Assembly (NCBI RefSeq): GCF_036588685.1
Contig: NC_086375.1
Location: forward strand, 47,492,001-47,556,000
Source: Mytilus trossulus
Taxonomy: Eukaryota
Length of the DNA stretch: 64,000 nt
Direction: 5' to 3'
Part shown: positions 6,801-42,730 of the stretch, one piece after another
Numbering within the stretch: position 1 is the stretch's first letter
Layout: every line of letters begins with the position of its first letter
The notes under the pieces: generated by a model
Databases searched by the model: none
What the model saw: only the letters and a program-made list of their open reading frames with translations
Told to the model about the DNA's origin: nothing
Position numbers and translations under genes: made by a program

Positions 6801-6872
6801 TTTAAGCTTTCTTCATAACACATTTGTTGATTTTAAAACACTGTCGAAAATCAATCTTAGTATAGTTGAAAA

Positions 6873-7421
6873 ATGGTTTGCTACGAAAACACTGTTTCCT
6901 GTGCCGTTGTTGGTGATGGAATGGTAGGCAAGACATGCCTTGCTAAAAGATTTGCTGGAAACCAGTTCTCTGAACAATATGTTGCTACAGTTGCAGAAAC
7001 ATCGACTGGATCTGTGTCAGCTTATGGTGACAAGTATAAAGTCATCAGCTATGAAGATCAATCAGCTAGATCCAAAACAATAACAGAATCCGACGTCATT
7101 GTTGTATGCTACAGTGCAGTTGACAAAGAATCATTTGAAAACGTCAAATCCTTTTGGATTCCAATGGTCCGAAAACTCCATAAGAAGAAACCAATTGTTT
7201 TAGTCGCTACACATAGTGACATGCGTGATGACAATAATACCGATCATGTATCAGACGCTGAAGGACAAAACTTTATGAAATCAATTAATGCTGACTATTA
7301 CAACAAATGTTCTGCTGCTACAAATGAGGGAGTGAAGAATGTCTTCGAAAGTGTCGTCTGCGCCGCTATTAGATATAGAAAAAAGAAAACCAATGTGCTT
7401 AAACGTGTTTTCGCACGATGA
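6873..7421 (+). CDS. Atypical Rho/Rac/Cdc42-like small GTPase, intronless, 182 aa, lacking G3 (DxxGQ) and CAAX
   Basis: P-loop GDGMVGKT, switch I YVATV, DVIVVCYS/SFENV..W.P core, G4-like ATHSD, G5-like KCSA, polybasic tail. TATAAAAG at 6784-6791. Confidence 0.92.
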   Translation: MVCYENTVSCAVVGDGMVGKTCLAKRFAGNQFSEQYVATVAETSTGSVSAYGDKYKVISYEDQSARSKTITESDVIVVCYSAVDKESFENVKSFWIPMVRKLHKKKPIVLVATHSDMRDDNNTDHVSDAEGQNFMKSINADYYNKCSAATNEGVKNVFESVVCAAIRYRKKKTNVLKRVFAR

Positions 7422-7554: not shown

Positions 7555-9009
7555 AAAGACGGATTGAAATACTACTGTCGAATTACAGTGATTGAGATGG
7601 AAAATAAGTAGTTCCGGTGATGTTCAAGGACATGAACTTAGAAAAACAATACGAAATCAGTCATATTTATGAACTTAAAGAGAAACGAATTGATTTAGTG
7701 AAAAGACACAAACAATACTAAGTCTTGTTTATTATTGTAAAGATAATAACAACAATTACCTTAATTTATGTTCTAAAAATAAATTTTATTGCATGAAAAA
7801 TATCTGTTCTCTTTACTTTTTACTGATTGTATATTGAAGGAATGACCTGTAAAGGTATCAAGGTTACTGAGTTACAAGTTTAGACTTAAGTTCAAATAAG
7901 AATGATGTGGTATTGCAAGAACACATTGATAAAATAGAGACATCATCAATACTACTTCTCAGAGAAAAAAAAACCGAAAAACAAACAACGGTCTACATAA
8001 GAATTACAGCGTAAAATATGTAAAAAGTTCAAATTAGTTGTACTGCACACTTTCAACAAAAGTTTTAAGATCATACAATTTTTTTGGCCGACCTATGTCA
8101 ATTGTCTATGTTCATGTTCATGGAAACAGGATGCAAAGGATACACAAGGGACATTCAAAATTTATAAATCAAAGAGAAACTGAAAACACAAAAGCAAAAA
8201 AGAAAATCAAAAACAAAAACCTAAATAAGCTTCATAACACACAGAAAACTAAAGTTTAACATACACGAATCCGTCGAAAAAGGGTTGCTTAGGGTATGTT
8301 TATCCGACTTATATCAATTCTTTATCTGTATTTACAAGTATTCTTTAATTGACCATTGTATACCGTCATCTTACAATACTCTTTTTGAAGTGATATTTCA
8401 GGGATTGTGCTTATTAACAATAACGAAAGTTTTGTTGTGAACAACATGTCCTTAGAAGCGACCAAACTTTGATATGAAGCAAGAGTACCACTCCAAAAAA
8501 GACAAAACAATATTTGGGAAGCTGGAATTATTGAGTTTTTGTATTCAAATGTCACATCATATCAATTACCATACGTTAGTAAAATTTAGATGTTTGCCTC
8601 GTCTTTTCCAAATGGTTATCTTTCAGTTAAAATCTCTTTATATACTGAACAGGAAATGGAAAAAAGAAGTTTCAACCGAAGTTTTCTTAAAAGTCCACGC
8701 ATAACGTTTTACTATTTCTCAGTGTTTACTTGCACTTCTATAACGCACGATAACATAAAGTAAAATCACAAAAGTATTGAACTCAGAGGAAAATTCAAAA
8801 CGGAAAGTCCCTAATCAAATCAACGTTTTCTTTGCAAGTGATATATATTATTTATAGAAAACTGCTGAATGCCTCAATCTTTATATTATTTTAATCAATC
8901 TATTATACAAGCCCAACAACACAACGAAAAAGGATAAATTGTACGACAATTTTTGAGTTTTTTTTTAAGCCTGGCGTTGTTCATTTTCTTTTCGAATTTT
9001 TAGTCTGTA

Positions 9010-9256
9010 CACAGGCAAAATTGCAACGCATGTAAACGCATGTTTACCAGGAATTTACCGTACGTTTCTAAACATGTCAGAAACGCATGTTTGGAGCACC
9101 GTACGTTAAACGCATGTTTGGAGAACGTATTGTTTACATGCGTTTATGGGAAACATGCGTTTGAAAACACATGGTTAACGCATGTTCATGGTAACCGTAT
9201 GTTTGAAAACATATGGTAAACACATGTTCATAAACCGTATGGTAAACGTATGTTTG
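9010..9256 (+). repeat. Left TIR and subterminal repeat array (AAAC[G/A]CATGTTT-like near-palindromes)
   Basis: Repeated aaacgcatgttt / aaacatgcgttt / aaacgtatgttt / aaacacatg units in both orientations directly inside the terminus. Confidence 0.9.
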
Positions 9257-9289
9257 GATGAAGGTTGCTTTACTTCCAGTTCAGATCAG

Positions 9290-10028: not shown

Positions 10029-13000
10029 TTAAACAGTGGCCTGAGGTTCTGAAATAATAAGTAAGATGCAAAGTTAATTATGCATTTTTTTATAACTACC
10101 AATTAATCTTTAATTAAAAACAAGAAAAATAAATTAAGTTGAGGTTAATATTAAGTACATTGATACATAAACATCTATATGTTTCTGAAAGACATTGAAA
10201 ATCAATTATATCAGATTATAAACAGTTAAATTTTCCTTTCTTAACTAACGGGTTTCAGATAAAAGAAACTATAAGTTTTTCAATTTTATTGTATTTAAGG
10301 GTAAAGAAAATCAAAAGATACATCCTCATCCCAGATACATTAATTGTATTTCAATCTTCATAAAGCAGTAATATCGATCCTTGTGGATTGTTAAATTTTT
10401 TTTTATATATTTTTGTGTGTATGACAAAGATTAGTAAGCATTCTTTCATTCTTTAAACAAGAATGTGTCCATATAGTACACTGATGCCCCATTTACATTA
10501 TCATTTTTTTCTGTTTAGTGTACCGTGAAATAAGGATCAAAACCCTAATAAAAAGTAGTCACAGGAAGTAAGTCAGGCTCTGACTACAACAAATGTAGAA
10601 ATCATTTTAACGGTACATGATTCAACTTGATTGTTCCCTTGCATGCAAACATTTAAATATCATTAACACAAGTGTCAGACTGACATACAGTGGTTCAGAA
10701 GGTCATCAGACGGAAGTCAATTAATAAATGTACACTTATCCTCTGTAATTAGAAATTTTTATACACTGTATTCAAATTGCATATATCCTGTTAAATTGAC
10801 AAATGACTAGTAAAAGTCAAAATTACTAGGGAATCACTGCATAGACAAAGAAAGAAATGGAAGGAAGGACACAGAGAATGTAGTCAGACTGACAGACAAG
10901 GTGAATTCTAAATTTATACCACCAATATGTAAATGAGTGGTGATATTATTTGATTGATTCATCTCACTTTTTCTAAGCAATAAATATAAATATACTTTAT
11001 AACAAAATACCTTGTCTTCTCTTGGTTCTTCTTGAGTCCAATTCCTGGAGTGTTTTCCACTTTTCAGGATCATTTATAACCTGGATCTCAACAAAGTAAT
11101 CCTTAAATTTTCCCCAAAAGTCAAGAAAAAATTCCACCTCATCTGACCCGTTTGTGTTTAATTTGTGCTTGTTGAGAAATGACCTCTAAAATAAAAACAA
11201 ATAAAACAGTTATTTGTATTACAATTAACTAACTTAAGAATAATGTACTTTCTTACACGCCTATAATATATTTAAATAACCTATGGAAAACTTGTAAACA
11301 ATTCCAGCTCTTCAACTTTTTAACTGCATTATACCCCTATGTTCTATTTTTATCCATGGCGGCCGTCTTGGTTGGTTGGTCGGGTCACGCCACACATTAT
11401 TTAAACTAAATACCCCAAAGATGATTGTGGCCAAATTTGGATTAATTTGGCTCAGTAGATTCAGAGGAGAAGATTTTTGTAAAAGATATATAAGATTTAC
11501 GAAAAATGTTAAAAATTGACATTAAATGGCAATAACTCCTAAAGGGGTCAACTGACCATTTTGGTCATGTTGACCTATTTGTAAATCTTACTTTGCTGAA
11601 CATTATTACTGTTTACAGTTTATCTCTATCTGTAATAATATTCTAAATAATGACAAAAAACAGCAAAAAATCCCTAAAATTACCTAATTCAGGGGCAGCA
11701 ACTCAACAAAGGGTTGTCCGATTCATCTGAAAATTTCAGGACTGATAGATCTTGACCTGAGAAACAATTTTACCCCCTATCAGATTTGCTCTAAATGCTT
11801 TGGTTTTTGAGTTATAAGCCAAAAACTGCATTTTACCCCTATGTTCTATTTTAAGCCATGGTGGCCATCTTGGTTGGTTTGGTGGGTCACCCCACACATT
11901 TTGTAAACTAAATACACCAATGATGATTGTGGCCAAGTTTGGTTCAATTTGGCCCACTAGTTTCAGAGGAGAAGATTTTGTAAAATTTAACGACAAACGA
12001 CAACAATTGTATTAAAGTTGATTATCAAGGTAGGTTATGTTTGATTTTCTATTCTATTGCATTATTCGCATATGTACTGATTTCAGCAAGTCAACATGGC
12101 GGCTCATTGGTTACGAAATGTCAACTTTGGATTTGACGGTAGCTCACGGGAAAAAACATATAAATCAACATGGTGTCGAGAATGAAACATTTTTTTTTCA
12201 GCGGTTGTTCACGAAATAATCCGTGCAAGCTACGGATCTATTAAAATGATGAGCTTTATCTAACAGGGAGTAAAAAAGAACAGCCATACACACAGATTTA
12301 CCCACCCTCGCTTCAGTTTTTTTAATGATCGTATTTGTCCTATTAGAATCGAAATAACTCATGGAAGCCATAGATTATTGGAAATTTACACATGGCCTGG
12401 GCCGTGATATTCGTTGATTTTATCCCTCGCTAACGCTCAGGATAAAATTTGAATATCACGGCCCGGGCCATGTGTAAATTTCCAATAATCTATGGCTTCC
12501 ATGAATTATTTCTTAATTTACACATGGCCTGGGCCGTGATATTCGTTGATTTTATCCCTCGCTTTCCAGGCCATGTGTAAATTTCCAATAATCTATGGCT
12601 TCCATGAATTATTTCTTAAATAACAGTTTGAATAACAAAAAGTTATAAAGGATGTTATGAGTATTTGGAAATAAAATAAAATCTTGAATTGATACTTTAA
12701 GTGCCAGTCTGCCTACTTAGAATCAGGCAGTGGTCAAAACATGACCAAAAAAAAACACCCAATTTGACATTAATTTCAGTTCATAATATGTAGTTATGCA
12801 CAAAAATAACATCCATTTCCGTTTTCTGTTCTGGTAATAGAAGATACAATTTGGTAGAAATACACAAGAGATTAAAAAATAAGGGGAGATAACTCTGTAA
12901 TTTGCTATAATTCTAACCAATTTTCTAATCGAGTTATTTGATATTACCAGACACATCCAAACGAAAGACTAATAATTTTTAACTCAGGATTATGGTTAGT

Positions 13001-16000
13001 ATTAAAAAGCATGATTAGCTCAATGGGTTTTTTATAATCATGTTTTGATTTTAACCTAAATTGCCTGATTCTTACAAAGACTGGCACTTAAGTCTGAAGA
13101 TCATTAGTTAATTAAGATTATATATTTCTAAAACTATCAAATCATACTTTTTTGGCATCAACATGATCAATATAATATAAAGCAAATGTTACCTAAAATA
13201 TTAACTTACTAATAGCAGGCTCAGTTGCCTTCTTTTGGGGGCCAACACATCAGATGAATTACAGAATGGGCCAAGGAACACTTTACTGAACTCATCTAGT
13301 TCCATGGCCTGTACATCTTTTCCTGATTTTATGTCAAGAGAAATCTAAAATGTATGACTTTAATTTTAGTAATTAGTACCAGTAATTAAGAATAAGACAA
13401 GTGTAACTCAATGTATTTGAAAAATTTAATATGTCCATTAATTTTTAGATAAATGCAAATCAGTCCTATTTAAACTGAGTTTTACTGTGTATATTGCTGT
13501 CACATGTTTCTTTATTTTACATTGTCATTGGCTGGAAGTATAGGGGAGGTTAAGTTCTCACAAAATATGTTTAACCACACAGCATATAATTTGCACCTGT
13601 TATTTGTCAGGAGCCTCTAGCCTTTGTTAGTCTTGTATGTTTCTGAAGCATTAGTGTAATCAATCCCGTTTCAAAATAACTAGACTAAGATCAATCATTC
13701 CTGGTATACAAGCTAGTGTAATCATTCTTGGTTTAAAAAGACTATATATACTGTGAATATTACTCAGAAGAAAACACTATTTTACTTTCTCCTTTTCTAA
13801 GTTAAATCAACAATGCAAGTTTACCAAGAAATAATTGAATAATTAAAACTGGTCTTTGTTTGTGTGATTGACAATGAGACAATTTTCCATCAAAGTCATA
13901 ATGACAGGTTGGGAACAACCTCTTAATTTTATAAATATCCCTTTTAATGAGGGGTCAATATAACTTTATCATGTTTATAATATTTTTTGTTGTAAAAAAC
14001 ACTTTTTAGTACAATAAGGAGGACCACTAAATTTCCAGTTGCAGTAGGGTCTTAGACAATAAAAAATGGCTGGAAACGGAACAATTGTAAAAAATTCCAG
14101 TTTTGGGTTTTGGTGAATAATTTGGAGATGCTTAAACTTAGAATCCTTATCTTTTAGTACAATGTAGCTGCCAGCCATATATTGGTTTTGATGATTTTGG
14201 CAATGTATAGGTATTTCCCCTGTTATATTTCAGAGCACTCTAACTTAGGATTAATTGGTTTCACAGATACATGTATGTACAGTGTGGTGGGGTGCTAATA
14301 GGTTTAAAATCGTTATATACAGGTTTATAAATCTTACTTTTCTCCTTAATTGGTTTCTATAGTCTGTAAATTTGGCTGCAGACCACTGCACCACCATCTT
14401 AAAGGCATGACCTTGGCCTTTGAAACCTTCTTTATCAAGGTGTGATTTTACTTCATTCTAAAATAGATTGACAAGATAATATATTATATGAACGACTTTT
14501 AAATGTAAAAAAACAAAATACACATAATCCAAAACTCAAACCACAACTGTAAAGCATTGAAACTTAGTAAATTTACAAGCAATGACTATATGAGTTAACA
14601 AATGGTCAAGTTTGACATTTAAACCAGTCAAACTACGGTTTAACCTCAAACTAATTGCAACAGAAAATGTTTTAGTACTAATCTATAGCATAATGCCATA
14701 AATTAATAAACACAGAAAAAAAGTCCCATAAAATCTAACTGGAGGAAAACTCAAAATCAGCATTTTTATTTTCCTAGGGAAATTAAACACTGAAAGGGGA
14801 GATAACTCTGCAAAAAAATTTAGTCTTTCTTTTTTGTTCAGTTTTTGGGTTTTTTTTTGAAATTTGTGTAAAGTATGATACTGTGATGGGGTAATAAGTT
14901 AAATATATAATCTTCTGCTCATGAAATGTACAAAACCAAAGTATTATGGGTAGTTTTATTTTTTTTGGGCATGTTACATTGCAAATTTGAAGCTTTGTGT
15001 CCGTTTAAACTAGAGGCTCTCAAGAGCCTGTGTCGCTCACCTTGGTTTATGTGCATTTTAAACAATGTACACAGATAAATTCATAAGAAAATTGTCAGGA
15101 TAGCCTTGTGCAATGTAACCTTATTACACCAATCATTTACTCTACATCTTAGAACTTACTTTGAAAACTATGTCTGAAGTGGTATTCAACCATGGGTTGA
15201 CACTAAACTTCTCCCGAAGGTAAGTATTAAGTTTCTTCTGGAAATAAACAAAATTGATTTCATGATTTGATTAAGAACTTTTTTTATATTTGAAGGGAAC
15301 AAGAGGATAAAAGGTACCAAATAATAAGTATTAATTAACCCTCTCTTACATTAATTTTTTTTTCTCTGCAATCTTGATTCGCATAGGATTCTTGTAATAA
15401 AATGCTGAAAATATGCTTAAAAGTCAGTAATATAAGCAGCATATATGTAACTGTCTTTGGATATCTTTAAAAAAAAATTAGAATGGAAACAGTCTCAGGG
15501 AATGTGTTAGTGTCACTACATTGATGTGAATACCTCACTTGGCCTTTAATTGGGCCAAATAAGCTAAACAAAAATATACATGATATTCTGCAAAAATTAT
15601 TTTAGAACTGCATAAAACAAGAATGTGTCCATAGTACACGGATGTCCCACTTGCACTATCATTTTCTATGTTCAGTAGACCGTGAAATTGGGGTCAAAAC
15701 TTTAATTTTGAATTAAAATTAGAAAGATCATATCATAGGAAACATGTGTACTAAGTTTCAAGTTGATTGGACTTTAACTTCATCAAAAACTACCATGACC
15801 AAAAACTTTAACCTGAACTTCACACTATCATTTTCTATGTTCAGTGGACCATAAAATTGGGGTCAAAACTATTATTTGGCATAAAAATTAGAAAGATCAT
15901 ATCATGGGGAACATGTGTACTAAGTTTCAAGTTGATTGGACTTCAACTTCTTTAAAAACTACCTTGACCAAAAACTTTAACCTGAAGCGAAAGGACGAAC

Positions 16001-18125
16001 GGACGCACAGACGGACGAACCGAGGCACAGACCAGAAAACATAATGCCCCTCTACTATCATAGGTGGGGCATAAAAATACCTTGAATGAGCATTCCTCCA
16101 TTAGGAAGCTCTGTCCTTTCTGCTCTGACTGCCTCTTCAGGTACAGCACATCAGCTGATAGTTCTTGCAGAACCTTTTCCATTTTGACTAGCTTGTTCAC
16201 TTAAAAAAATTGTATTATGATAAATATTCTTAGCCAATTTAATTAATTTTTCTCATTACCTTTTGTTCCAATTGTAAAAATCAAGTAAAATTCTCAACAC
16301 TTTTTCAGTTATAATCATTCTTCATTAAACTTCATAGTTTTTCTCTTTAGACTATGATTCAGTCAACCTAAAAAAAATTATTCACATCTATATGTCCTTG
16401 ATTGACCTAAAACAGGCTAAAATTGTATAACAATAAATGATATGTCACTTAGAGTGAAAGTAATTTTATTGAGAAAATAATTGAAATTCCTCAAGTCCAA
16501 TTATTTTAATGGCAGGCTTCTATAAGAAATTTGGTTATTTGCTTAAAGTGTAATAAAACTAAATGAATAAAAACGCTATCTATCTGTCTCATCTAGTTTC
16601 GAGTGATTTAAACGACCCAGAGAAAATACCCAATTTTACTATCCATACTAAGAAAAAAATTCTTAGTATGGATAGTAAAATTGGGTATTTTCTCTGGCTC
16701 GTTTAAATCACTCGAAACTAGGTGAGACACGCACAGAAGTGATAGATATGTATTATAAATATAGAAAATTGAATATTTTTAATAAAAAAAAAAAAAAAAA
16801 TCTGTATCTTAGACCCAAGCGCATGTGATTAGAGAACCCATTATATATCAAGAACACATGTTCCTTGATTATAAGTTAATGGTTAAATTCTTTAACTTTT
16901 ATATAAACAGTAATCAAATGATATGTACCAATATGTAAAACCAACATTTTTTAAAGTTTTGCAGTCGTATAAAAACCATTGAACTGTTACAATTAATAAT
17001 TGAAACCTAGTTAGATTACTTTATTTATAGAGTATGCACTTACAAATTTCTTTGGATCCAGCACTAGCCCCTGCTGGGTTTTCTGGCGGTGCAAACAAAT
17101 CCTGGGAATGGTCTTGCTCATCTCCAGGTACAGCAACAGGCACATTTTCCTGTGAATCCTGTATAAAAAAAGTATACATGATAAGTTGATGGGATACTTT
17201 TAAAAATGTTAAAGGCACTAGTTCCTGTAAAAATGTACGCTATTGTTCAGAATTAAAAGCCCCCCCCCCCCCCCCCCACAAAGTGTTATAAGAGGGGTTG
17301 CGACATTGACTAACCTAAAAAGGGGATGGGTGTCCAGACCAGTCATACTTCAGTGATTCCCTATGTAATTAAACATTTTTTTTTAACATAAGAGGGATGC
17401 CCCTCCCCTGAAACCACCTTTGGCCCTTTGGATACTACGAAAAATGCTTTTAATTATGAGCATTTAATTGAACTGAAAGATGCTTTTATTAATGGGCATT
17501 AAATTGAACTAAAGGATGCAGGGTCATTCTATATGATGTGTTCATATTAATTCACACCTTTTGTTTAAACAGTTCAATCTGCTGTGCAATTTTTTTTTTA
17601 ATTCAGATGTGAATTTTAACAGAATAATATAAAATTAATATGATGTAATACATAAAAAGAAATCTCTTTTAAAAATTAAGATTTTATATGATTAAAGAAT
17701 TTTAATATCCAATCAAAGGTACATCCTACAATTAAAATTGTAAAAATGTAAGGTTTTCTGAAATAAATATTAATGTGTTAAGACAGGAGTCCATCAGGAC
17801 AAGTTAGATGATGGTAGTAATACTAATATATATATAGTGAAGAAGAAAAAAATCTTTGTAGATTTAAAGAAGATATTTATAATAATGTCTATATATCATG
17901 TTTATTAAACTTATCAAACTTTTTTCATCTGTGAATTATCTGACCAGTGTTAACTGGTATAGATCATAAAATATTTCAATATGTATCAGGAATCTACCAA
18001 ATTCTTAAAATGCAGCAAAATTCATTTCTTTTTGTACTCTAAAGCCGGCAATTTAAGGCGAACTGAAAAGTATCATTATTCCTTTACCCATATTATGATA
18101 ATATACCTACCTCTAACGCACTCAT
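10029..18125 (-). CDS. Transposon accessory protein (ORF2, TnpA-like role inferred), 7-8 exons, ~256-258 aa
   Basis: Exons 18111-18125 (MSALE), 17044-17158, 16081-16199, 15160-15237, 14338-14457, 13210-13344, then 10997-11185 (or 11011-11185 plus final exon 10029-10048). All GT-AG, phase-compatible and open. Low-complexity N-terminus, coiled-coil-like ILNKLVKMEKVLQELSADVLYLKRQ, then KFTDYRNQLRRKI and DFWGKF. First and last exons are least certain. Confidence 0.78.
11320..12000 (+). mobile_element. Non-autonomous repeat with internal ~500-bp-spaced direct repeat (Helentron/HINE-like, tentative)
   Basis: cccctatgttctattttt..ccatgg.ggcc.tcttggttggtt..tcagaggagaagatttt occurs at ~11330-11480 and ~11830-11985. 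A related inverted fragment lies at 61860-62140. Confidence 0.6.
12351..12620. repeat. Long hairpin (12351-12512) with adjacent partial duplication
   Basis: Arms catggaagccatagattattggaaatttacacatggcc / ggccatgtgtaaatttccaataatctatggcttccatg around a cgctaacgctc centre; partly repeated at 12516-12619. Confidence 0.8.
15615..16078 (+). mobile_element. HINE/DINE-1/pearl-like non-autonomous element
   Basis: Starts aacaagaatgtgtccatagtacac, has two ~178-bp tandem core repeats, a GACG-type microsatellite and a terminal atgcccc...ggggcat hairpin. Partial copies at ~10456-10550, 24285-24530, 27350-27440 and 32280-32545 (minus). Confidence 0.7.
16585..16729. repeat. Near-perfect inverted repeat, 70-bp arms and 5-nt loop
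   Basis: tgtctcatctagtttcgagtg...ctaagaa aaaaa ttcttag...cactcgaaactaggtgagaca, about 2 mismatches. Confidence 0.9.
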
Positions 18126-18570
18126 GCTCTTTTCCTTCAGTTTTTGTATGTTTGACTGATTTCACTGTGATGCGTATTCAAATAAATTTTGACAGAACTG
18201 TGTAACTTTGTAATAGTCGTCTGCTAAATGACGTCACATCGGAAGCGTCGGTAAGAGCGCAACAAAAGCTGAAGCGGAAACGTAAACGTGATGTTTCTAA
18301 AAATCTAAAGTCAATCGAAAGTATATAATTGTTGTGCAGTTATTTTAACGAAATAAAATAAATAAATATAGTAAACGATTTAGATACGTACAATGTTCTT
18401 ATTGTTGAAATAAAGAGGGATACTTCCGTGTAACCGTTTCCCGTTTTTAGTTTGACCCGTATGACAATCGGAATATTTTTGGGCTTGACTCAACTGAATT
18501 CAACAACCCTAGAGAGCTACCGAGTGAATCATTGTTTACTGCGTAACTATCAGTTGATTACTATGTCAGT
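18126..18570. promoter_or_regulatory. Putative bidirectional promoter of the transposon genes
   Basis: 445 bp between divergent start codons, locally CpG-richer. Perfect CRE TGACGTCA at 18229-18236. ETS-like CGGAAG at 18240-18245 and CTTCCG at ~18423. Confidence 0.6.
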
Positions 18571-21500
18571 ATGTACATCTGCGACTGCTGTAATTTTAAA
18601 ACAACGCGACTGTTTAATTATCAGAGACACCTGAGCAGAGCTACACACGAGCGGCAAGTGTTTTTAACTCAAGAGAACAATTACTCTTTCTCACCTGGAT
18701 CTATTGAACCCCCTTCGGATTTCGTGTCGACAGCCTTCTCCGGCAGTGAAGAAGACATATTTATACAAGTAAACCATGAAACACTAGATGAAAATGAAAA
18801 CAGAACTAGCGAGACAGATCAATCTGACAATGATTTCCAGGAAAACCACCAAACAGCAGATGAAAATGAAAACTGTAATACTAATAGTAATAACGAGACA
18901 GGCCCATCTGACAAAGCCCCAACATGGTATCCTTTTTTATCCAAAGCTGAAATGTTGCTGTACATCTTTATGAATTCTACAACACATCCAGTTGTAAGTT
19001 TGTCATTTTATGATTTTATTTAATATAAGAGGTTTAAAATGGTATTGGGTCTGTTCGCCCTAATTACAAAATGTACATGTACAATGTACATGTTCGCCCT
19101 GGGACCTGTTTACCCTCAGTTTGTTCGCCCATAGGCATGGAGTCAGTTCATCCTACAAAATGTACTTAAAAATATTTTAAAATATTCAGGGCAATGCAGT
19201 TTAAAAAAATTATTTAGATTATTATTTCTAGGGTATATTCTTGAAATTTATTGAAATTAACATTATGTGACTAGACAACAATTAGAAAAAAATAAAAATC
19301 AGGGAGAATGGACCCTCACAGTGCGAACAAGTATCAGGGCCAATATAGGTACAAGGGCGGACACGAAACAGGTCGAACAGTTTAAATTATGTTGTTGAAA
19401 AAATAATTGATCTTACTGTAAAGAGTTTGGAATTTAAATTTGTTCTCATACATATGTATCAATTAATTAAATGGATAAAATACAGGTAAGACATCAATAC
19501 AGTGGAATAAGGTTTTAAAGGACTTTGTTAATTATAAGTTGACATTTATTGTCAGACTACATTGTACATTTAATGTAAACAACCATTTTGTAAACATATG
19601 CAAAATTTGGATTTGACAAAAAATCAAGAATCAGAATACATATTTCCAACATGTCAAATTATTCTTTTTTAAGTATATAGGACAGGATCTTTATGTTTCA
19701 TATTTCTATTAAAAAAAAGAATACATCTTTTCATTATCAGTCAGTTCATACAGATTGGTAAAGTCTTTGATTAAAAAGCTGAAGGTTAAAAAATTTCTTC
19801 ACTAAATGTTATAATTTCCAGGTTTAATTCACATTTTATGACATTAAATTATAAAACTAAAGCATTTAGAGTAAAATCTGACATGGGATAATAATGCTCA
19901 TTTAATGTTATTATAGATAAAGAGAAATTGTGAACAGCATAAGATTTCAGCATAGTCAGATCTAATATATTAGTGAATATGACCATAATTGTCAATTGAC
20001 TCCTTAAGGAGTTATTTTCCTTCAATGACAATATAGCACATTGTGTTCAATCATATTTGCTTTATTTTACAAGGTTCCAAAATATTTGACATAAATTTAT
20101 ATAATAAGCATTGAAATTAATTAAACTGTAATTTCATTTTTCAGAGTGATGAAATAGTGAAGTATATCATTTTTATGATGGGAGAACTGAATGTGACAGA
20201 TGTCCCAACTCTGCAGAGTTTGAAAAATAAAAATATTGGAGACTTCAGCTGGAAAGATTTTGTGACAAAAGTGAGGGTTCTATTAATTATGATACATTGT
20301 ACATGATGAAAATTGGGTTATGTATTCAGAAAAAAAAAGTGAATTAAGAGCTCTTTGAAAGGAAGCATTAAATATAGAAAGAAAAGAAAAAGTTGCAACT
20401 ATAAAAACCATTTATCAAATCAATCCATGTGTTCGTAGATAGTAGATGTTGTTGTGTCCTGTTAAATTGTTATACGATGATGACTGATGTTCCCATATTT
20501 TGACTATTTTATTGATTGTGACTGTTTATTTAACGCATCATGTAAATGTAACGGAATTTGATGAGACTGTTATTAAAGTGAGAGGGTTAGCGCTATAGAA
20601 CCAGGTTTAATCCACCATTTTCTACATTTGAAAATGCCTGTACCAAGTCAGGTATATGACAGTTCTTGTCCATTCGTTTTTGATGCGTTTTGTTTTTTGA
20701 TTTTGCCATGTGATTATGGACTTTCCAAATTGATTTTCCTCTAAGTTCAGTATTTTTGTGATTTTACTTTTTATCATCCTCTATGTTAGTTTTGTTTGAA
20801 ATCTATACAGTATAAGAAAACAACAGTAAAATTAAGGACAACTATGATGTGTGATAAAAATGAACTGGAGCGTTTTTAATGACTAAAGCCCTTTGTTAAC
20901 CTTTATTAAAGTCTCAGTGTCAAGCAGTCTACATAAAGCTTGATTATACTAACATCATTATACTGCAATTTTGTTATACATGAAAGTCATTCATAACTTT
21001 TTTTACTCTGAAATTTGATTTTATACATTTTATACTTTACAATTTTTTGTAGTCTACAAGTGAAGATGGCATTCCTGTTTGGTCGATGAAACCATCACAG
21101 GTATTAAGGCTCAATATGGCACATCCTAAGATCTCAAAGTCACTCAAAAGGTATACGCAATCAATTCTTAGATAACTCTTTTATAAAGATTGATCTTGAT
21201 CACAGAAATTAACAACTACTGACAGCCTTCAACTATGAGCAATGTCAATACAGCATAGTTCATTATAAAAGGCCCAACAATTACAAATTTATGCGAAACA
21301 ATTCAAAGTAGAAAACTAGTGGCCTAATTTATTATAATGTACAAATAAAAGAATGAATAACAAGTATGTAACACAGCAACAAACGACAACCAAGGCTTCT
21401 GACTTGGGACAGACACATGCATACAAAATGTGGCGTGGTTAAACATGTTACCACATCTTTGTGTCACACACAGTCATGTAACAATTTTTTAGCTAGTTAA

Positions 21501-24500
21501 AACAAAATTATCCTATTCCTATAATAAGATCACCAAACTTAGATAAAAAGGTGAAATAGGAAACACCAATACAAGAAATCTGATAAAGCATTGAGCATAT
21601 GAAAAGATGATTCCAATTCAATGTTTTATACATGTTATGTTATATACATGTATATAATATTTTGTAGAAGTGCTGATGAAAATGAAGTTATAAGACATCC
21701 TGCCAATGGAAAAAAATGGATTGAAGATCTGAATTTTAACTGCCAAACCCAAGATGGACAATCTGTAATCACAATCCCTTTCAATATGTTTCTGGATGAT
21801 ACAGCCACTCATAAAAGTAGACGCTGGATGCCACTACATTGCATTCAGATGCAACTATCAGGTATTAATTTATTTAAGTATATTGATGCGTGTTCAAACA
21901 TATCAATTTAATATTGTGTCAATGACAGTTTCTGCATCAACAACAAAAATGCATATCATCCCTATGTTCTGTACTTTGCAAAGTTAATGTTTACCAATGG
22001 ATGGATCATAGACACCAGTTACAGATGGAATTACCGTAGTGCATGAGCTGAAAATCACATTGAAAATAAAAAGAACAGTTGCAATATTATAATGATATTA
22101 AAATAGGATTAAACACATTTTTAATAAAGGTTATGATGTGTTAACATGTTGTTAACAGGGGCAATTATACTCACAATCTGGATAAAAACCTAAAAGAAAT
22201 GAGTTTATCCCTTATAATTTTTCAGCCAAACATTTCCAATGTTTGAGAAACATTTTTTGTTTGATGGATACAATATTTACCATCAACAGATTCCCAAAAG
22301 CACAATGGCATGCCATAACTAAGGTTACAAAGCCATCTTGAATTTCTAAAAACCATAAATGTCTGACAAATGCAACAGAATCTAAAATGATATATCTTTT
22401 ATTTGAAATTTTTCCCTCCTGTATCATAATAATGTTAAATAATTCATTTTTTTATTAGGGATTCCAATAGATATGAGACAGAAACAAGAGACAATTCAGT
22501 TCTTGGGAGCAACAGAAAAAGCTGACATTATGGATGTTGCAAAGATAATAATAGATGATGTCAAGAGCAATAGGTACATGTATAGTACTTTAGTAAATAA
22601 ACAAATGTGAAGAAATAAAATGGCAACCGTTTGTAAGAGTATCTTAAAGGTATTTTACAAAACATTGGTATACCATTAATTTTATTTAAGGACATGACTT
22701 ATATTTTTTCTGTCATTTTTATAGACTTATATGTATAATATAAAAAAGAAGATGTGGTATGATTGCCAATGAGACATGTCACGGAATAGAAGTTCTGTCA
22801 TAACATAAGTACCAAAAGGAAAATATATTCTGGAATATTGTTTCCACAGGAATAAATATTACAGTATATGTTCCTAACGGAATAAATGGTATAGAATATT
22901 TGTTCCATCAGGAATACATGGAATAGATATTATGACAATGTTTATAACAAAGTTTCCATTGGAACTTCTGTTAGAGGAACAAATATACGTTGACAGACAA
23001 CTATCCACAAAAGACCAAAATGACACAAACATTAACAATTATAGGTCACCATACGGCCTTCAACAATGAAAAAAATATAAAAAAGAAGATGTGGTATGAT
23101 TGCCAATGAGACCACTATCCACAAAATACCAAAATGAGACAAAAATTAACAATTATAGGTCACCGTACGACCTTCAACAATGAGCAAAGCCCATACCGCA
23201 TATAGTCAGCTATAAAAGGCCCCGATAAGACAATGTTAAACAATTCAAGCGAGAAAACTAACAACCTTATTTATGTAAAAAAATGAACGAAAAACAAATA
23301 TGTAACATAAACAAACGACAAGTATGTCTGAGCCAGTGACAACTCTACAACAGATTTATCTGTTGGATCACCAGCAGTGATGGTGAGACATGGCTGTGTA
23401 CATTATGTATATATATACAACTCTTCTAAACATCAACCCAACAATGTTATATCTATAAATTTGCTTTTGCAAATTTTTGTTCTTCCCTTGCCTGGATTCG
23501 AACCCAATCCCAGCGAGGGAAGAATAAAAAATTTGCCAAAGCAAATTTACAGACATAACATTGTTGGGTTGATGTTTAGACAAGTAGTATATATACATAA
23601 TGTACACAGCCAATGGATCATATATAAATGAGCCAATACATATATTTTTATTGTCACTGTGTTGGAAAGATAAAGCAGATACAAAATATGAAGCCTGCTA
23701 CTTTTAACACGTTTCTAATTACTGTAATTTAGTATTTTAACAATTGATAATTAAGATATAATACACATCAAATTAATTGATTCACATTCCTCAGTTTTAA
23801 AATTTGTTTTAGAAATGGAATTGAGACCTTCGATGCAGCCAATAAGAAGAAATGTTTTGTGACAGGAGTAGTTGATTGTATCGTTGCTGATTTTAACATG
23901 ATGTCATATTGTTGTAATCATCTTGGAGCAACAGCTCAGAAGTACTGTCCAAAATGTTATGTATGTATAACTACACTTTGAAATGAATATTATTCTCAAA
24001 TGATTTAAATATTGAAAGAAATTAAAACTTTGACAAATGAACCAATGAACAATGACAATCAGGTCACCATCAATTGACCCCTGCAAGTTTGACATAAACA
24101 CCTAACAGATATTCCTTAAACCAAATATAGTTTTACATCCTTTAGTATTTGGAAAAAAAAACAAATCACAAAATAATGACATTGAACAATAAACAATGAA
24201 AATAAGGTCAAGGTCAGAGTAAACCTGCCAGACAAATATATACAACTTACAATCATTCCATAAATCAAATATTGTTTTACTATCCCAATATTGGGTTAAA
24301 AACTCTATTTGGTATAAAAATTAGTAAGATCATATCAAATAGAACATGTGTACTGAGTTTCCTGTTGATAGGACTTGAACTTCATCAAAAACTACCTTGA
24401 CCGAAAACTGTAACCTGCCATTGGAATTACAAACAAATGAACTAACGAATGAAAAATGGATGGACTTACAAATGGGCGCATAGACCAGAATACATAATGC

Positions 24501-27500
24501 CGTTTTCTATCATAGGTGGGGCATAACAATACCTAATCACGGAAAAATATCATTAACCAATGAACCATGAAAATGAAATCAAAGTCAGACTATTACTGGC
24601 ACACAAACATACAAGTCGTACAATCATTCCATACACCAAATATAATTGACTGAATGTAAAGTTTCCAAAAAATAGACCAAAACTGAACTTTGACAACTGA
24701 AGACCAAAAATAAACTTAGTGACAACTGAACCATTGAATTGAGGTTAAAGTCATGAAAACTATCGTTTGCACATGTACACTTACCAATCATTCCATACAA
24801 GTGATCCATGAAATGAGGTCAAGGTCAAACGAAAAGTATCTGACAGGCATTAGTACAGTAGAAGGTATTCACATACCTTATATAAAAATAAGTGGCTGAT
24901 CCAGGGGTAGATTGGAACCACTATCCCTTTTTTTATTCAATCAATAGGGACATATGTTTGAAACCACCCCTTAATACCTGGATTTGGACCCCCTGTTCTT
25001 GAAAATAGATCAGCCCCTGGAAATCATATTACATGGCAAAAAGCTCAATTTATTTTGACTTTAAAATACTTTACTTTATTTTATGTTTTAAGGCTGATGC
25101 AGATCACTTTATGTCGCTGTGCCAGAAAAGAACACCAGCAGATACTAAGCTCCAGTTAAACAGACTTAGTTTGAGATCTCTTGAAAAGGATAAAAAGAAA
25201 TTTAGGAAGAAAAAAGGTGTGAAAGAGCATGACAATGTTATGTGGGATGTATTGGATCCACACAGGTAAATATAAATCAATCAATATCTATCTATAAATT
25301 TGACCCTAACCTGAAAGTAATTGCAACAAAAGTTTTTTAAGTTTTAATCTTTAGCATTATACCCCAAATATACACAGAAAAAAGTCCCACAGAATCTGAC
25401 TTGAGGAAGACTAAAAAAATTACCATTTAAAAATCCTAAGGAGATTTGCATTGAAAAGGGAGATAACTCTTGCAAAAAAGGCAGAAATATCAATAAAAAT
25501 TGATACAAAATTACAACTTTACCGCTTCTATTCACCAGAATGTAATGCTTCTGATATTTTATCGGTCTTTAGAGTAAAACGAACAACTCTAAAGGTGTTT
25601 TCATATCTTTTATCAAGCTAAAATCTAGATTTCCTAATTCATTAGTTGACCAATTTTTGAATTTTTCAACATGTCAAGGTAAAGAATCTCTAATTTAATA
25701 AAAAGAGTTCAGCATGTATTCTTCTTTTTGTGGTTTAAAGCTTCTTTAGATAAGTAAGATGCTGAAAAAATATAATACACAGATATAAACAATATCAAAT
25801 TTTCACATTATTTTTCAAAAATGGTCACAAAGCTTCAAATTTGCAATTTCTTTAATGAAAAATGCACTCAAGAAATAAAACTACCCATAACACTACAGTT
25901 TTGTACAGTTCATGAGCAGAAGATAATATAATTTAGTCAAAAACAAACTTATAACCCCATCAAAGTATTATACTTTACATAAATTTCAAGAAAATATACC
26001 TAAAAAGACAAAAAAAAACTCATTTTTGCGGAGTTATGGGACTTTTTTCTGTGTATATTAAGGGCATAATGCTATAGATTAGAACTGAAACATTTCCTGT
26101 TGCAATTAGTTTGAGGTTAAATCTTAGTTTGGGTGGACTAATAAGAAAATGTGGTGTAAGTGTCAATTATTCAACTCCCCAGCCAAGAGATAATGTGGTT
26201 AAAATAAACATTTATAGGTTACAGTACAATTTTAAACACAGCGCCTTGGCTCATCCCAAACAGCAAGCTATATTAGGGACCCAAAATGACTAGTGTGAAA
26301 CAATTCAAATTGGATAACCAACTGTCTAATTTGTAAACAAAACAAGAAAATGACAGTTGATATAAATTCAGCTTGTTCAAACATTTCATAGGCAGTTCCA
26401 GGGGGGGGGGTGGAGCTGGGCCCCTCCTTTTGTGGGAAAAACTTGGTTGAAGCATGGCTGGAGCAGGTCCCCCCTTAGGTCAGTCAGTGCCCCCATCCCC
26501 CCTTAGGAAAAGTTGTGGATCCGCCACTGCATTTTTACAGACACCAACCTTCACACTAACATTACAACATAAAAAGAAACACTTTTCAGAATTAATTGAA
26601 AAAGGTTTAACACCTTAAATTGACATGTTTATTTTAAACAAAAAATTATAAGAAGTGACATAATGGAATATTTTAAATATAGAAAACATTTAGTTTAACA
26701 TGTATACTAGCTACCCTATATAATGTAATAGGATACGACCGAACAGTGTCATGGGAATATATTAGCTTTAATTCATGCCTTTCTTTTTTTAGAGATATTC
26801 CAGTTGGTCTTCTCCACTTATTACCTTTAGGATTAATTAAACATTTAATCCAATACATATTTAACAACATTGGAAAAAATGTTAAGACCAAGCTTATGCA
26901 TCATTTGCTGTCTATTTACCCTGGAGCACAATTTCATGAGTTTGATAAACATTTAGGAAGTAGACAAGGGAAGGATTTTAAAGAATATGTGAGTAAATTT
27001 ATTTATATTTTAATTTGTAAACTAGAATGAGCATGAAATATCCATCAAATAACCAAAAACTATTAAATGGGAGAACCACTTGCAGAAGTATGGTATATGT
27101 GAGTGATTGCAAAGGTTATGCTTGTCTCCCACGTGGTGATAGGGGACATAGAAATACCAGACATTAGTCTGTTAGACCTGTTAACACTTACTTGTATATA
27201 ACTTGTACAAGTTCAAAAATGGTCGCAACCAACCTTTTTAAAGAGTTATGCTTCTTGGAAATATTAAGTCCTCTCATGGGTAAATTTTTTGTGTGAAAAT
27301 GAGTGCTGATTGACTTATTTATGGAGAGTTATGCCCTAGGTCTATAATAGCCTTTGACTTTAACCTGAAGCGGGACAGATGGAAAAACAAATGGACACAC
27401 AGATCAGGAAACCTTATGCCCATAAATTGGGCATAAAAAGTAACTAATACAACAATTTCTACATACAGTGTTTTAATAATAAGCATATGAATATTTAATA

Positions 27501-30500
27501 GTACATGTATAAAGAATGAACAGTATTGATTTTGCTTATTTATTAAAGCCAATCCACTATAAACAAATATTTATAAACTAAATGATATTTTTTTTTAAAA
27601 TATTTTAGAAATTTCCCATAGTCTTAAAATGCATAGTATTTCTTTTCAGTTGCAAATAGCACCAATTAATATGTTGTATGCTGGTGTTCCAAGAAGATAT
27701 ATTAAGATGGTGACTAGTTTGGCTCTGGTATGTAAGACATAATTAAATTAGTAACTTATAAACATATTTCCATTACAATTTTAATTGGAAGTGATTGCAG
27801 TGTCCTCTTTTATCAGATGCACATTTATGATTTAAAAAGTGGTACTGTTTTTATAAAGGTTAATTACTTTCCCTGCCTTAAACAATGTGTTTAATTTTTG
27901 TTTTGCCAATTAAAACCATACACCAGGAAAACCAGTAAATCAAGATTAATAATATTATATCATTGGAGTTTGTAAATTGATTGTAACCAGATATATCATG
28001 TTAAGGAGGGGTATTTTTAAAAAATACCAGTCTAGAGAATGTTAAATTTTGCGAGCCGTAAGGCGAGGGAAATTCATTCTCAAGACTAGTAATTTTCGCA
28101 AATGCCCCTCAAGAACATGCTATATCTGTTTAATTACATCGAATGTTAATGTTAAAAAATGCATTGATGATTGTGACGTTACAACCGTCAAGTCCGATAG
28201 AGTATTTTTTGTCTAATTACACCTTATATAAGAATGCCAGCTTTTGATTGGCTGAAAGCCAGTGTATTTTTCGCATATTCTAACATTTTTTCCTCATTTC
28301 AAACGAATCTGACTGTTTTTCACCACTGCAGGTGAATATGCTTCAAATACCATGGTATTTGCCATTTTGGATATTCCTTTTTTACCCTAACGAGCATCTT
28401 CCCGCAAATTTTTTTCGGATACGACTTTACATAAAGACAGCGCGAACGTGCATTAGTACATGTATTTTCCCTCGGTATATTTTATGATTGTACTTGTCAT
28501 CAAATACATATTTCCTTTTCCTAGTACAGAGAGTTTAAATTAAAATGTATTCGGTGTAATTAATCAGATATATCATGTTATGGAGGGGTTATATAATTTG
28601 CAAAAAATACAAGTCTTAATGGGACAAAATTTCCCTTGCCTAGCGCCTTGGGAAATTTAAGTCCCTCAACTTGTATTTTTCGCAAATACCCCTCCATAAC
28701 ATGATATATCTGTTCAAAATACCACAGCAGAGAGGGTAAAAAAGGCATATACTTTTTGCAAATACCCCAGTTGCCTTTAAAATGAACAATTTCCATTTGG
28801 AAACAGTAAACTAGTGAAAAATTCACTGGCTATTAGCCAATCAAAACCCAGGATGCTTCTTATAAAAGAAATATAACATGGCTTGTTAGTATAAGCAGAA
28901 CAGTTACTGTTGAATTTCAAATGATCAGAATTATCTATTCTGTTTTTTTAATTTGTTTTATTTTTATTGTTAAAGATCCAGAAGAAATTGAATGAAACCT
29001 CATTTTGTTCAGAAGATTTGGACAAAATAAGAGAGGATATTAGAGAATATCAGCAACTTATATACCAGTATGCCCCAGAACTAACCAGAAAAGTAAAAGC
29101 ACATCTTTTGCTACACTTGGTAAGATGATCATTAGATATTGTTACTATTGCTTTTAATACTCTTTTTTGGTTTTGATAACGTTTTAAATGTTACAAAATA
29201 TTTCAAGGGTGCTCCGCGTCACCAGGTAATTTAAATTTGCGACAGTAAAACTACTGATGGACGTCCTTAAAGCTTCAAATACAATACAATTATCTCTTAA
29301 CTGACATAGCAATTTTTCAAATACAGTATTGATACTCTGATTGTAATGCATCTCAAAAAGAAATAATACGATAAAACTTTATAAAATGTCTTTTTTTTTA
29401 CCAATTGAAAAAATCCTGTGAAACTTCATGAATGATTGTATAGTTGTAATCGAACATTTGTTGATTCAATCATTTCAAAATGGAGGGTCCCTCTTTAGTA
29501 ACAACTGGTCGATGGTGAATTTGATGTCAATTTTTAGCCAATTTGAATAATGTTACATACATATTGCATTAGAAACTTGTACAACCCTGGTGACTAGAAA
29601 TGGAAGAAAAACAAAAATACCATAACCTATTTAAGACACAGATATATTAAACACAACATTGGAAGCTTAAGAGTAAAAGAGTGAGCAACATAATCTCAAT
29701 AAAGAACAAAGGTGGTCTCAAACTAGAAAAAGAAAACAAGTCATCTTCAAAATGTATCATTTGTCATGATCTGTCATGGTATCCACTATATAAAAAAAGG
29801 ACGTGGAAACCGTTTAAGCATAGCTTATTGAAACTTGATTGTGAAAATTAGTTTTTATTTTTGAAAATTTTTCAGGTAGATGATATTGAAAGACATGGCC
29901 CTCCAAGTGGTTTCCTTGAGGATGGTTTTGAAAAAAAACATGGAAATATAAGAAACCTTATATTCCAACAGAACCAAAAGGCCAGGAGTCGAGACACTGC
30001 CTTCAAGTTTGCACAAAACTTTTTGTGTTTCCATGTGATTACAGGAGGATATTTTGAAAGGAGCAGAATATGGTATGTTGCATTGTTAAACTATATGAAT
30101 TGAGGTTCATTTAACACTGACATTTCAAAAAAATGTATATATACTTTAGTAAACAATAAGATGTGTTATGATTACCAATAAGACAAGCCTCAAAGTATGT
30201 TTAAAGTAGTAAATATAAGCAAGTATAGGTGTCAGTTCAGCCTTTGCGGGATTCAAATCCTTCAACTTATTTGGAACATTGATTTTACAGGACAATAAAA
30301 GAAACAAAAACATTTAAAACTCTTTTAATATACTCAGTTTAACAGTCCGACATGAAGCATGTAACATATGTTTTGAAGAAACTTGGCTGACAGGGACAGG
30401 GCCATTCGTGTCACTTTGACACATCTAGTTTATAATTTTCAGGACACAAGCATCTGCCAAAGTACTTGAATCTGGAGAAAAAGGTCCTATTCTGAAATTT

Positions 30501-36000: not shown

Positions 36001-36419
36001 TTCGAACTGCCTAATAATATTTATATTACAAGTTACATTAATAATACATTATTTTCACAATAAGAAATGACCAACATATTTATATACCAAACCCTAACTG
36101 GTACTCTAAAGAGTTTACCAATGCTTGAGTTGAGTTTTGTAGATTTCGGGTTGTTATCTCTTGGACACATTCCACATTTCCATTCTTTATTCTAATAATA
36201 CGTACCAGTATACAAATAATTTAATATCCTATTATATGTTTTTTTGTCTTGTGTTGAGGGAGCCTAAGCATTGGCATTTATATCGTTTCCATAAAAGATT
36301 ATTGCATTATTTTATGCATTTTTTATAATATCAAAATAACACATAGGCAAGACGTAGGTATATATTATTCATTTACATGTCAATCAAAAAGTTTAAACAT
36401 TATTACATAAGTCAGTTTT

Positions 36420-36845
36420 CAAAACATGAAAAACATATGTTTTTGAACATAAATATCTTTATTTTGTGTTACTCAAAACATACGTTAACGGCCTGTTTTC
36501 AAACATACGTTAACCAGATGTTACTCAAAACATGCGTTTACCAGGTGTTTTTCCAAACATATGTAAACTACATGTTTTCAAACACATGTTTACCAGGTGT
36601 TTCTTAAAACATATGGTAAACATATGGTCAAACGTATGTTTCTCATATGTTTTGTAAACATGTGTTTCACATGCGTTCATCAACGCATGTTTACTACATG
36701 TTTTTCAAACATATGGGAAACGCATGGTTTCAAACACATGTTTACCACCTGTTACTCAAAACAGATGGTAAACATATGGTGAAACGCATGTTTACCATAC
36801 GTTTTCAAAAACACCTGGTAAACATGCGTTGCAATTTTGCCTGTG
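36420..36845 (-). repeat. Right subterminal repeat array and TIR
   Basis: Same motif family as the left end over ~430 bp, ending ...acatgcgttgcaattttgcctgtg. Confidence 0.9.
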
Positions 36846-37835
36846 TATGTTATTTTGGTATCTTTCGAATTTGCTTTATTGTTCCCGCTTAATTTTTTTC
36901 ACGTTGTTTTTTTACTTTGATCTGAAGAAATAATTGTTTGTATTTTGTTTTTCTATTGTTGTATTTTGTTAACCATACTGTTTTGAATGTTCCCTTCGTA
37001 CCCTTTGCCTAGCTCTTTTTATTCCGAATACATACACATTTTACATAAACATATTACTCTATTTTAAAAACAATTAAGCTGCCGTGTGAACATTATGAAA
37101 AAGTCGATCTTGACTAGGAATTGATAAACCATTGTGACCACAAAGTTAACCAAAAACTCAACAACCTTTATTTGAATCGGTAATCTTTTGTGGTTTTTTG
37201 TTTGATTTTTTTTCTTGTTTATGAAGTATTCATGTTGTTATCTAATGATTTGTTTTTATTTGCGTTAACATCAAAGTGTGTTGCCCATTAACATTGATAT
37301 TTTGTTTCAATATGAATACTTATCATTGATTTTTATCAAAAAATTAACTGTCTGTAACAACCTTTTCGTGTCATTCCTTCAGTGTATTGTGAATACATAG
37401 CTAACAACATAAACATTTTTCATATAAGATAATTTATTTTCATAATATAAATCACTGTTATCATTTTACAATAATTAACAATAATAACTTTTGTCTTTTC
37501 ACCATTTAAGTTTTTTCTTTAAATTCATCATCTTGACTAATTTCATATTGTTTCTCAAAGAACTATTTCGTTTCTCTTTAAGTTCATACTGATGATTGAT
37601 TTCACATTGTTTTTGTAAGTTCGTGTCCTTGCCCATCACCGGCACTACTTATTCTCCATCTGAAATACTGTAACTCGACAGGAATATTTCAATCCATCGT
37701 AGGAATGTACACCAGTGGTACATTCCATCTCCAACTGCTTCTATCTCAAAGTCTTTTGACAGCAAAAGGTTTTGCTATTCTTAACACAAGATGTGTTTAG
37801 TAAATGTTTATCTCCGGGCAGAGATAAGTTCAAGT

Positions 37836-42469: not shown

Positions 42470-42730
42470 TTGTCAATACTAGAACTAGCACTTGTATTGT
42501 CTACAGTTTAATTATATAATACTAAAAGTAAACAAAAATGTCGACTATACACAGAAAACAATGAAATAAATCAAACGATATCAATTTACACACCACAAGC
42601 AGTGAAACGGTCATATAGGTAGAACTCCAGGGGTCTTTTATGATCATATACATGTTAATTTATAAACAATAGAATTTTCACTTTGCAGGAGATATTTTTC
42701 AAACAATAAAAGAAACAGAGCGATTAACCT
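42470..42730 (+). promoter_or_regulatory. Orphan copy of the + strand Rho promoter, no gene downstream
   Basis: Aligns by eye with 6550-6775 (caccacaagcagtgaaa..ggtcatataggta.aactccagggg..aaacaatagaatt.tcactttgcaggagatatttt). TATA segment absent. Confidence 0.7.

Follow-up and report, generated by a model that had tools for sequence, protein, structure and literature searches.

What does a second, non-catalytic gene do inside an animal DNA transposon? The question is raised by a 64,000-nucleotide stretch of the Mytilus trossulus genome (contig NC_086375.1, positions 47,492,001–47,556,000; here the window), in which an accessory gene on the minus strand lies head-to-head with the transposase gene of an EnSpm-like element. 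The accessory gene is real, spliced, and transcribed, and we regard it as almost certainly borne by the transposon. Our assessment, held with slightly better than even confidence, is that the product of this second gene of a two-gene EnSpm-like transposon would serve as an end-binding transposition helper, comparable to TnpA or to the Myb-like protein of Harbinger and of separate origin.

Structure and Transcription of the Accessory Gene

The accessory gene runs on the minus strand from 18125 to 10029 in eight coding exons; its introns are all GT..AG, and the exons join in one open frame of 258 amino acids.

18111..18250, minus strand: accessory exon 1, with the ATG at 18125 (coding 18125–18111) and the 5′ untranslated region (UTR) to ~18235–18250
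17044..17158, minus strand: accessory exon 2, disordered, with DSQ and SQDLF motifs
16081..16199, minus strand: accessory exon 3, long heptad-like helix
15160..15237, minus strand: accessory exon 4, predicted helix 1, with the invariant F94
14338..14457, minus strand: accessory exon 5, predicted helix 2 and the long basic helix 3, KFTDYRNQLRRK
13210..13344, minus strand: accessory exon 6, seen as a splice and in a transcript contig
11011..11185, minus strand: accessory exon 7, bundle helices and DFW motif
10029..10048, minus strand: accessory exon 8, with the stop; gene model P0040 has the same end

A preliminary description of this DNA had proposed seven or eight small exons, about 257 residues, and several motifs, and this outline holds, with eight exons, 258 residues, and the quoted motifs all present. 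Transcript evidence comes from sequencing runs that were chosen because the accessory gene is present in them; none is recorded as RNA and they are guessed to be so, but spliced joints are what RNA yields. A 942-nucleotide contig from run X1 matches exons 1, 2, 3, 5, 6, and 7 with 0 differences, leaving gaps of exactly 78 nucleotides at the place of exon 4 and of 75 nucleotides at the place of exon 8 and the UTR. The joint between exons 6 and 7 (11185/13210) is present in all four runs compared, from four studies, and contigs from X4 and X11 show the same exon order in part, such that RNA-type contigs of three studies bear out the splicing; no exon 7/8 or exon 3/4/5 joint was among the matches listed. 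The preliminary description had allowed that the exons might not be transcribed, a possibility that these RNA-type contigs with spliced exons set aside. RefSeq model P0040 (M. trossulus, 258 amino acids) is identical to our splice and possibly derives from the same genome, so it is not independent; model P0001 (Mytilus galloprovincialis) agrees with the splice at 248 of 254 residues (98%).

The exon-like segment at 16370–16260 was rejected as an exon, as it has stops inside and is absent from the transcript. One X11 contig at 15160–15523 runs from exon 4 into intron 3, as a retained or alternative 5′ part. The accessory introns hold high-copy nested repeats and hairpin-like inserts (11322–12030, 12351–12620, 15615–16077, and 16585–16729). 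Accessory exon 7 also occurs between unrelated parts of P0002, a Mytilus coruscus model named HARBI1; we read P0002 as a likely chimeric gene model and rejected it as a link to Harbinger.

The Host Element and Its Transposase

The accessory gene sits within an element that spans 9010–36845 (27.8 kb), with matching CACAGGCAAAATTGCAACGCATGT ends and TA on either side.

9008..9009, no strand: left target-site duplication (TSD), TA; in 8 of 10 loci the left end directly follows a TA
9010..9260, plus strand: left terminal inverted repeat (TIR; CACAGGCAAAATTGCAACGCATGT) and subterminal array of AAA-CGCATG-TTT type motifs
18216..18570, no strand: short divergent intergenic region, with a GTCGTCTG..ATGACGT motif common to subfamilies A, B, and C
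18571..33024, plus strand: transposase gene, CMCT (EnSpm-like), intact, 13 exons, 840 amino acids, its 5′ exon present in an X11 RNA-type contig
36350..36845, minus strand: right subterminal array and right TIR
36846..36847, no strand: right TSD, TA

The transposase has an N-terminal C2H2 finger followed by MFLDD..VADF..CPKC..HLLLH..FEKKHG, to whose residues putative catalytic roles are assigned by motif. Between VADF and FEKKHG, which would hold the second D and the E, come CPKC in exon 6 and HLLLH in exon 10, in the C(2)C/H(3–4)H pattern, and the termini are CACAG..CTGTG with a TA duplication. Both features agree with the CMCT clade, defined in the available part of its description by C(2)C and H(3–4)H motifs, CA..TG ends, and a TSD of 2–5 bp (PMC12730594). 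The same text defines ESTA in fungi by TA duplications (PMC12730594), which the mussel element shares. The element departs from the strict EnSpm/CACTA pattern of CACTA/CAC ends and a 3-bp TSD, having CACAG ends and TA in 8 of 10 loci.

Matches to AAACGCATGTTT (≤2 mismatches) number 10 in the 290-nucleotide left end and 13 in the 521-nucleotide right end; outside the ends, the 9,010-nucleotide left flank has 0 matches, and 27-kb stretches of the interior and of the right flank have 7 and 8. The end repeat array reported earlier is thereby confirmed, with its matches concentrated at both element ends. The start codons of the two genes are 446 bases apart, accessory contigs begin at ~18235–18250, and the transposase contig begins at 18556; the region between the two genes is likely to act as a bidirectional promoter. 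The GTCGTCTG..ATGACGT motif stands at the accessory 5′ end at four loci (18216–18236 in the window; C12:952.3k; C3:4014.7k; C8:36691.0k), within surrounding DNA that is unalignable.

Copies of the Element and Linkage of the Two Genes

Queries of two kinds, four accessory sequences (proteins or exons) and two exons of the transposase, were run against the genome, followed by a profile scan of the retrieved DNA, and linkage to the transposase was assessed in the M. trossulus genome only. At six loci at least three accessory exons were recovered. Four of these have a multi-exon transposase in head-to-head arrangement: the window (A), C3:4.01M and C8:36.68M (both B), and, for subfamily C, C12:0.945M, where the element is 40 kb long and retains its two TIRs and TA. 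At C5:30.57M the accessory exons lie inside a 17.7-kb deletion copy that is bounded by TIRs and TA and has no transposase. The preliminary description asked whether homologues always lie head-to-head with this transposase family; they do at four of the six multi-exon loci of this genome but not at C5:30.57M and C5:24.83M. Among 12 loci with one- or two-exon fragments (a count that leaves out C5:47.37M, 47.51M, 47.55M, 53.29M, and 54.37M and C1:76.12M), two also hold the remains of a transposase, divergently oriented. The fifth of the near-complete transposase loci, on C13, has neither the accessory gene nor transposase exon 1, and no accessory match was found within the 40 kb examined around the single-exon transposase remnants at C3:32.2M, C12:11.4M, C5:50.2M, and C5:53.44M.

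A search of the genome with the left end gave ~20 strong matches. The left ends of nine other copies are 97–98% identical to that of the copy in the window and 98.7% alike on average, from which we conclude that the family moved recently. All seven of the young non-autonomous A-type copies examined retain only a decayed remnant of exon 7, and the intact copy in the window is a candidate master for at least 15 such copies.

Outside this genome, the accessory family has 38 representatives at E ≤ 0.001, and among the 20 looked up, those with a named host come from Mytilus, from oysters of four genera, from two scallops, and from Lineus, a nemertean. Some of the representatives, several in number, are multi-locus clusters, and the gene is multi-copy in oysters. 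In a tree of 29 rows (of ~100 proteins, the longer and more distinct ones being picked), species are dispersed across several supported clades; this scatter, together with the multiple copies, is the pattern of a transposon gene. The protein is under constraint, with pN 0.34 versus pS 0.84 over 206 codons between the A and B accessories. Dozens of bivalve genes now labeled “uncharacterized” would be accounted for by this family, as genes that probably belong to transposons.

The alternative of a passenger gene, captured from the host or domesticated and serving a host function, finds some encouragement in the window copy being the sole A-type one found with both genes intact, in near-identical transcripts from three organisms, and in one decayed multi-exon locus without a transposase. 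We consider it very improbable and, for the family, largely refuted. Three subfamilies have the gene in one position and orientation and with common exon borders (the borders of exons 4–7 being identical in A, B, and C, with 26% identity between the A and C accessories), and the transposases of these subfamilies are as low as 38–54% identical in matched exons. The TIRs and TSD are intact, and related young ends are 97–100% alike; the B accessory copies at two loci are identical over 212 codons; and the accessory gene tree is discordant with the species. Nor does the single-copy captured host gene entertained in the preliminary description survive, given a multi-copy family with one layout in three subfamilies.

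Pfam searches returned no family for P0001 at E ≤ 5 and none credible for exons or full proteins; among the members listed, none was above a curated cut-off, and for 35 family members there was no Myb, SANT, or MADF among the top 25 of 45 families. A metagenome scan confirmed 0 of 383 pattern matches, and a PDB sequence search with the family profile gave only weak matches of coiled-coil type. ESM Atlas searches with the oyster homologue P0067 gave unnamed fungal clusters at 0.93–0.94 and DUF6698 and DUF6532 at 0.85–0.88, which we treat as leads only.

Three further loci were observed: a tandem array of ~25 copies of a transposase exon-4 fragment at a spacing of 89 bases (C5:23562841–23565077); an A-type inverted duplication in which two left ends face each other, with two exon-7 remnants (C12:54510459–54533660); and a TIR-like end with a CATGCG-rich array, perhaps of a fourth subfamily (C5:53894789). 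In the window, the element lies within an array of near-identical open reading frames of small-GTPase type in both orientations (1758–3130, 6870–7421, 37836–53510, and 59798–60199), which are putatively Rho-like by motif. At the left junction, DNA-type contigs of four runs contained no listed piece that spanned flank and element, the flank being mostly uncovered.

A Mosaic Element with Subfamily-Specific Ends

In terms of divergence, the A and B elements are composed of two unlike parts. Transposase exons 2–13 are 91% identical (dS 0.27, dN 0.04, 693 codons), and their introns align at ~72–93%, whereas the accessory exons are 51% identical with saturated dS and transposase exon 1 is 38% identical with a dS of ~3; apart from nested repeats, the left arms do not resemble each other at the DNA level. 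As selection is unable to saturate synonymous sites in half an element, the catalytic core was likely exchanged between the A and B lineages.

The end motifs differ with the subfamily. The CGCATG core occurs six to seven times per end in A and 0 times in B and C, CATATG occurs up to 16 times in B, and CACGTG occurs 8–15 times in C and 0 times in A and B, against a flank background for end cores of 0.0–0.2 per 450 nucleotides. The right arrays of A and B are 69% alike, with the adjacent non-coding DNA at 84%, and the first 10–17 bases of the TIR are common to the subfamilies. These comparisons suggest that the end arrays stayed with the left module and that end specificity likely travels with this module. 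On the simplest reading, the core would read the TIR and something in the left module, either the accessory protein or the zinc finger of transposase exon 1, would read the arrays.

Predicted Fold of the Accessory Protein

Fold prediction from the single sequence was unusable (pLDDT 41); AlphaFold2 with a 54-row alignment gave a model with a pLDDT of 81 and a pTM of 0.66. The acidic N terminus is disordered to residue 35 and is followed by a coiled-coil-like, heptad-like helix (36–71). Helices 83–94, 106–118, and 125–155 form a predicted three-helix homeodomain-like unit (83–155); the third of them, long and basic, continues into a bundle made up of helices 165–176, 184–200, 217–230, and 236–252. 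The helical C-terminal region and heptad-like segment noted in the preliminary description are both recovered in this model; profile searching, its other route to an identity, produced no Pfam family that fits.

The top VIA-align match was the homeo-Prospero domain (PDB 1mij), with a weak Z of 7.1 and a root-mean-square deviation of 3.8 over 127 of 139 residues (model 79–229). Entries for HNF1A, HOXB13, WUS, Engrailed, and Oct4 appear in 50 VIA-align rows at Z 4.6–5.3, amid unrelated helical rows, and a second structure comparison gave a best Z of 5.3. The structural matches in the whole-model search were drawn by one three-helix unit (73–147).

Conservation is high at R143 (48 of 48 rows), Q145 (47/48), F139 (42/48), and F94 (44/44), and helix 3 carries seven K/R versus two D/E. 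In a manual register, L90, F94, W99, F139, and R143 correspond to homeodomain positions 16, 20, 25, 49, and 53; F94 and R143 are invariant and the other three are near-invariant. The homeodomain signature (L16, F20, W48, F49, N51, R53) is incomplete, the equivalents of W48 and N51 being missing: 34 of 48 rows have K at position 48 and 9 of 48 have N at position 51, whereas W, N, and R are invariant in 21 mussel homeodomains. The best local match in the homeodomain profile comparisons is the helix-1 register. On this model, the accessory protein looks like a homeodomain-type reader rather than a member of the homeodomain family.

The missing W48 and N51 equivalents also suit a transposase partner that would not read DNA, such as a scaffold, an import factor, or a damage-regulated inhibitor, with the transposase finger and N-terminal helices reading the arrays instead. 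Transposase exon 1 co-segregates with the end motif as well, and an SQxLF motif is conserved at the N terminus in 17 of 25 near full-length rows, which we take to resemble a protein-interaction or ATM/ATR-type phosphorylation site. We nevertheless think this alternative unlikely, as the most conserved surface-type residues (R143, N144, Q145, R147, and K149) cluster on predicted helix 3, which is the DNA-reading helix in the matched folds, and as half of the accessory protein differs between A and B, whereas the core to be bound is 91% the same.

Proposed Role in Transposition

In the mechanism that we favor, the accessory protein would bind the repeat arrays at both element ends, with helix 3 reading CRYRYG-type cores and the long helix oligomerizing the protein along the arrays. 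Ends coated in this way may recruit the transposase, which would itself read the short conserved TIR, and the accessory protein would help the transposase to pair and cut the ends. The accessory gene, promoter, transposase exon 1, and end arrays would then constitute a specificity module, and the catalytic core could be swapped between subfamilies. End binding gains indirect support from the basic third helix of the predicted three-helix unit and from the accessory gene traveling with the end motif and not with the catalytic core. Three subfamilies with different palindromic cores, together with a natural core swap, provide a ready test of specificity.

Several observations weigh against end binding by the accessory protein. 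The C2H2 finger of transposase exon 1 moved with the same module and is a candidate end reader in its stead; in animal Spm elements, as far as the available text of the preprint goes, a DNA-binding domain is typically fused to the transposase (bioRxiv 10.64898/2026.08.24.746577). The co-variation of motif and helix is based on only three related subfamilies, the A and B helices are nearly alike despite different cores, and the right end of A is mixed, including seven CATATG. The locus at C5:24.83M is multi-exon with stops and has no transposase or TIR within 50 kb, and 10 of the 12 fragment loci lack a transposase remnant in the 30–50 kb examined. For the fold, Foldseek against PDB and BFVD returned nothing at E ≤ 0.001, the Z of 7.1 falls within the range that VIA-align calls common for helical proteins, hhalign against homeodomains gave a non-significant E of 0.21–0.23, and the score of 15.8 between the family profile and the mussel Prospero domain was not significant (60 shuffles: mean 12.4, best 21.5).

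The protein could instead bind the ends chiefly to control transcription of its own family or to counter its silencing, like TnpA or VANC, and stand outside the cutting complex. Plant TnpA, in the portion of the study available, activates cognate elements and demethylates their termini (bioRxiv 10.64898/2026.08.24.746577). In the mussel elements, CpG is present in the cores of A and C, CpG-type transitions account for 9 of the 14 single-change variants of TCACGTGA in the C12 ends, the N terminus is acidic and disordered, and accessory RNA-type contigs occur in 4 of 4 runs, albeit runs chosen for having the accessory gene. However, the CATATG cores of B are without CpG, the promoter is 9 kb from the nearest array, and the anti-silencing activity of TnpA is tied, in that same text, to plant-specific demethylases (bioRxiv 10.64898/2026.08.24.746577), so that we hold a mainly regulatory role to be rather improbable.

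Comparison with Known Systems

The role of end-binding helper has precedents in plants and animals. Plant Spm transposition requires both TnpA and TnpD, and TnpA activates cognate copies, according to the available text (bioRxiv 10.64898/2026.08.24.746577). Like maize En/Spm and its Arabidopsis Spm TnpA counterpart, in so far as their descriptions were available, the mussel element belongs with the CMCT clade and combines subterminal arrays with a second, non-catalytic protein of predicted three-helix DNA-binding architecture. Unlike TnpA, described there with two tandem three-helix helix-turn-helix units ~45 amino acids apart, the mussel protein shows, in the whole-model search, one predicted unit and a bundle; unlike plant Spm as there described, the mussel element encodes it in a gene of its own that is divergently placed, lives in an animal, and has CACAG ends with a TA duplication. 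Pfam searches (P0001 at E ≤ 5; members as shown) found no plant TnpA family, TnpA sequences themselves not being directly compared; as no TnpA homology was found, any likeness to TnpA would be analogy. The accessible part of the preprint places TnpA-like proteins only in flowering plants, with various other accessory proteins among 962 Repbase structures (bioRxiv 10.64898/2026.08.24.746577), and a family of separate, divergently transcribed helical partners in the genomes of bivalves and a nemertean would depart from that view. The literature searched contained no description of the accessory family, and Repbase may hold such proteins unnamed.

For Harbinger3_DR, the excerpted account gives the Myb-like protein two binding partners, a subterminal motif of 9 bp and the transposase, which it also brings into the nucleus (PMC9710019). 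The mussel element resembles PIF/Harbinger and its Myb/SANT/MADF partner, within what that account covers, in being an animal two-gene DNA transposon with a small three-helix partner and a subterminal motif (PMC9710019). It differs in having a transposase of another superfamily (CMCT) and, in the Pfam search of 35 members, no Myb, SANT, or MADF match among the top 25 of 45 families. Among transposases, a close likeness in features, not by tree, is to the ESTA lineage of the CMCT clade, which shares a C(2)C + H(3–4)H EnSpm-like transposase, CA..TG ends, and a TA duplication; in the available sections ESTA is described from rust fungi with TET/JBP cargo, unlike the mussel element (PMC12730594). 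Kolobok elements, too, are animal DNA transposons with a second protein, KolX, for which a link to a host domain was made later; from what the available text conveys, its cysteine-rich ballast fold is unrelated to the all-helical mussel protein (PMC9587614).

In Prospero, the extended third helix joins a four-helix bundle, as stated in the available part of its description (PMC4901127). The mussel model may share with the homeo-Prospero domain (PDB 1mij) a set of three helices of which the third is extended and continues into a helical bundle, over 127 of 139 residues at 3.8 Å and at a Z that is common for helical proteins; it differs in its 7% identity, in having no profile support, and in the absent W48/N51 equivalents, and Prospero is a host transcription factor. 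That lophotrochozoan EnSpm-like transposons carry a homeo-Prospero-like end reader as a swappable module, sharing ancestry with the Prospero domain (compare PAIRED and Tc1 transposases), is a long shot. By analogy with these two partners, TnpA and the Harbinger protein, the mussel protein likely works as they do, yet by the searches above it groups with neither.

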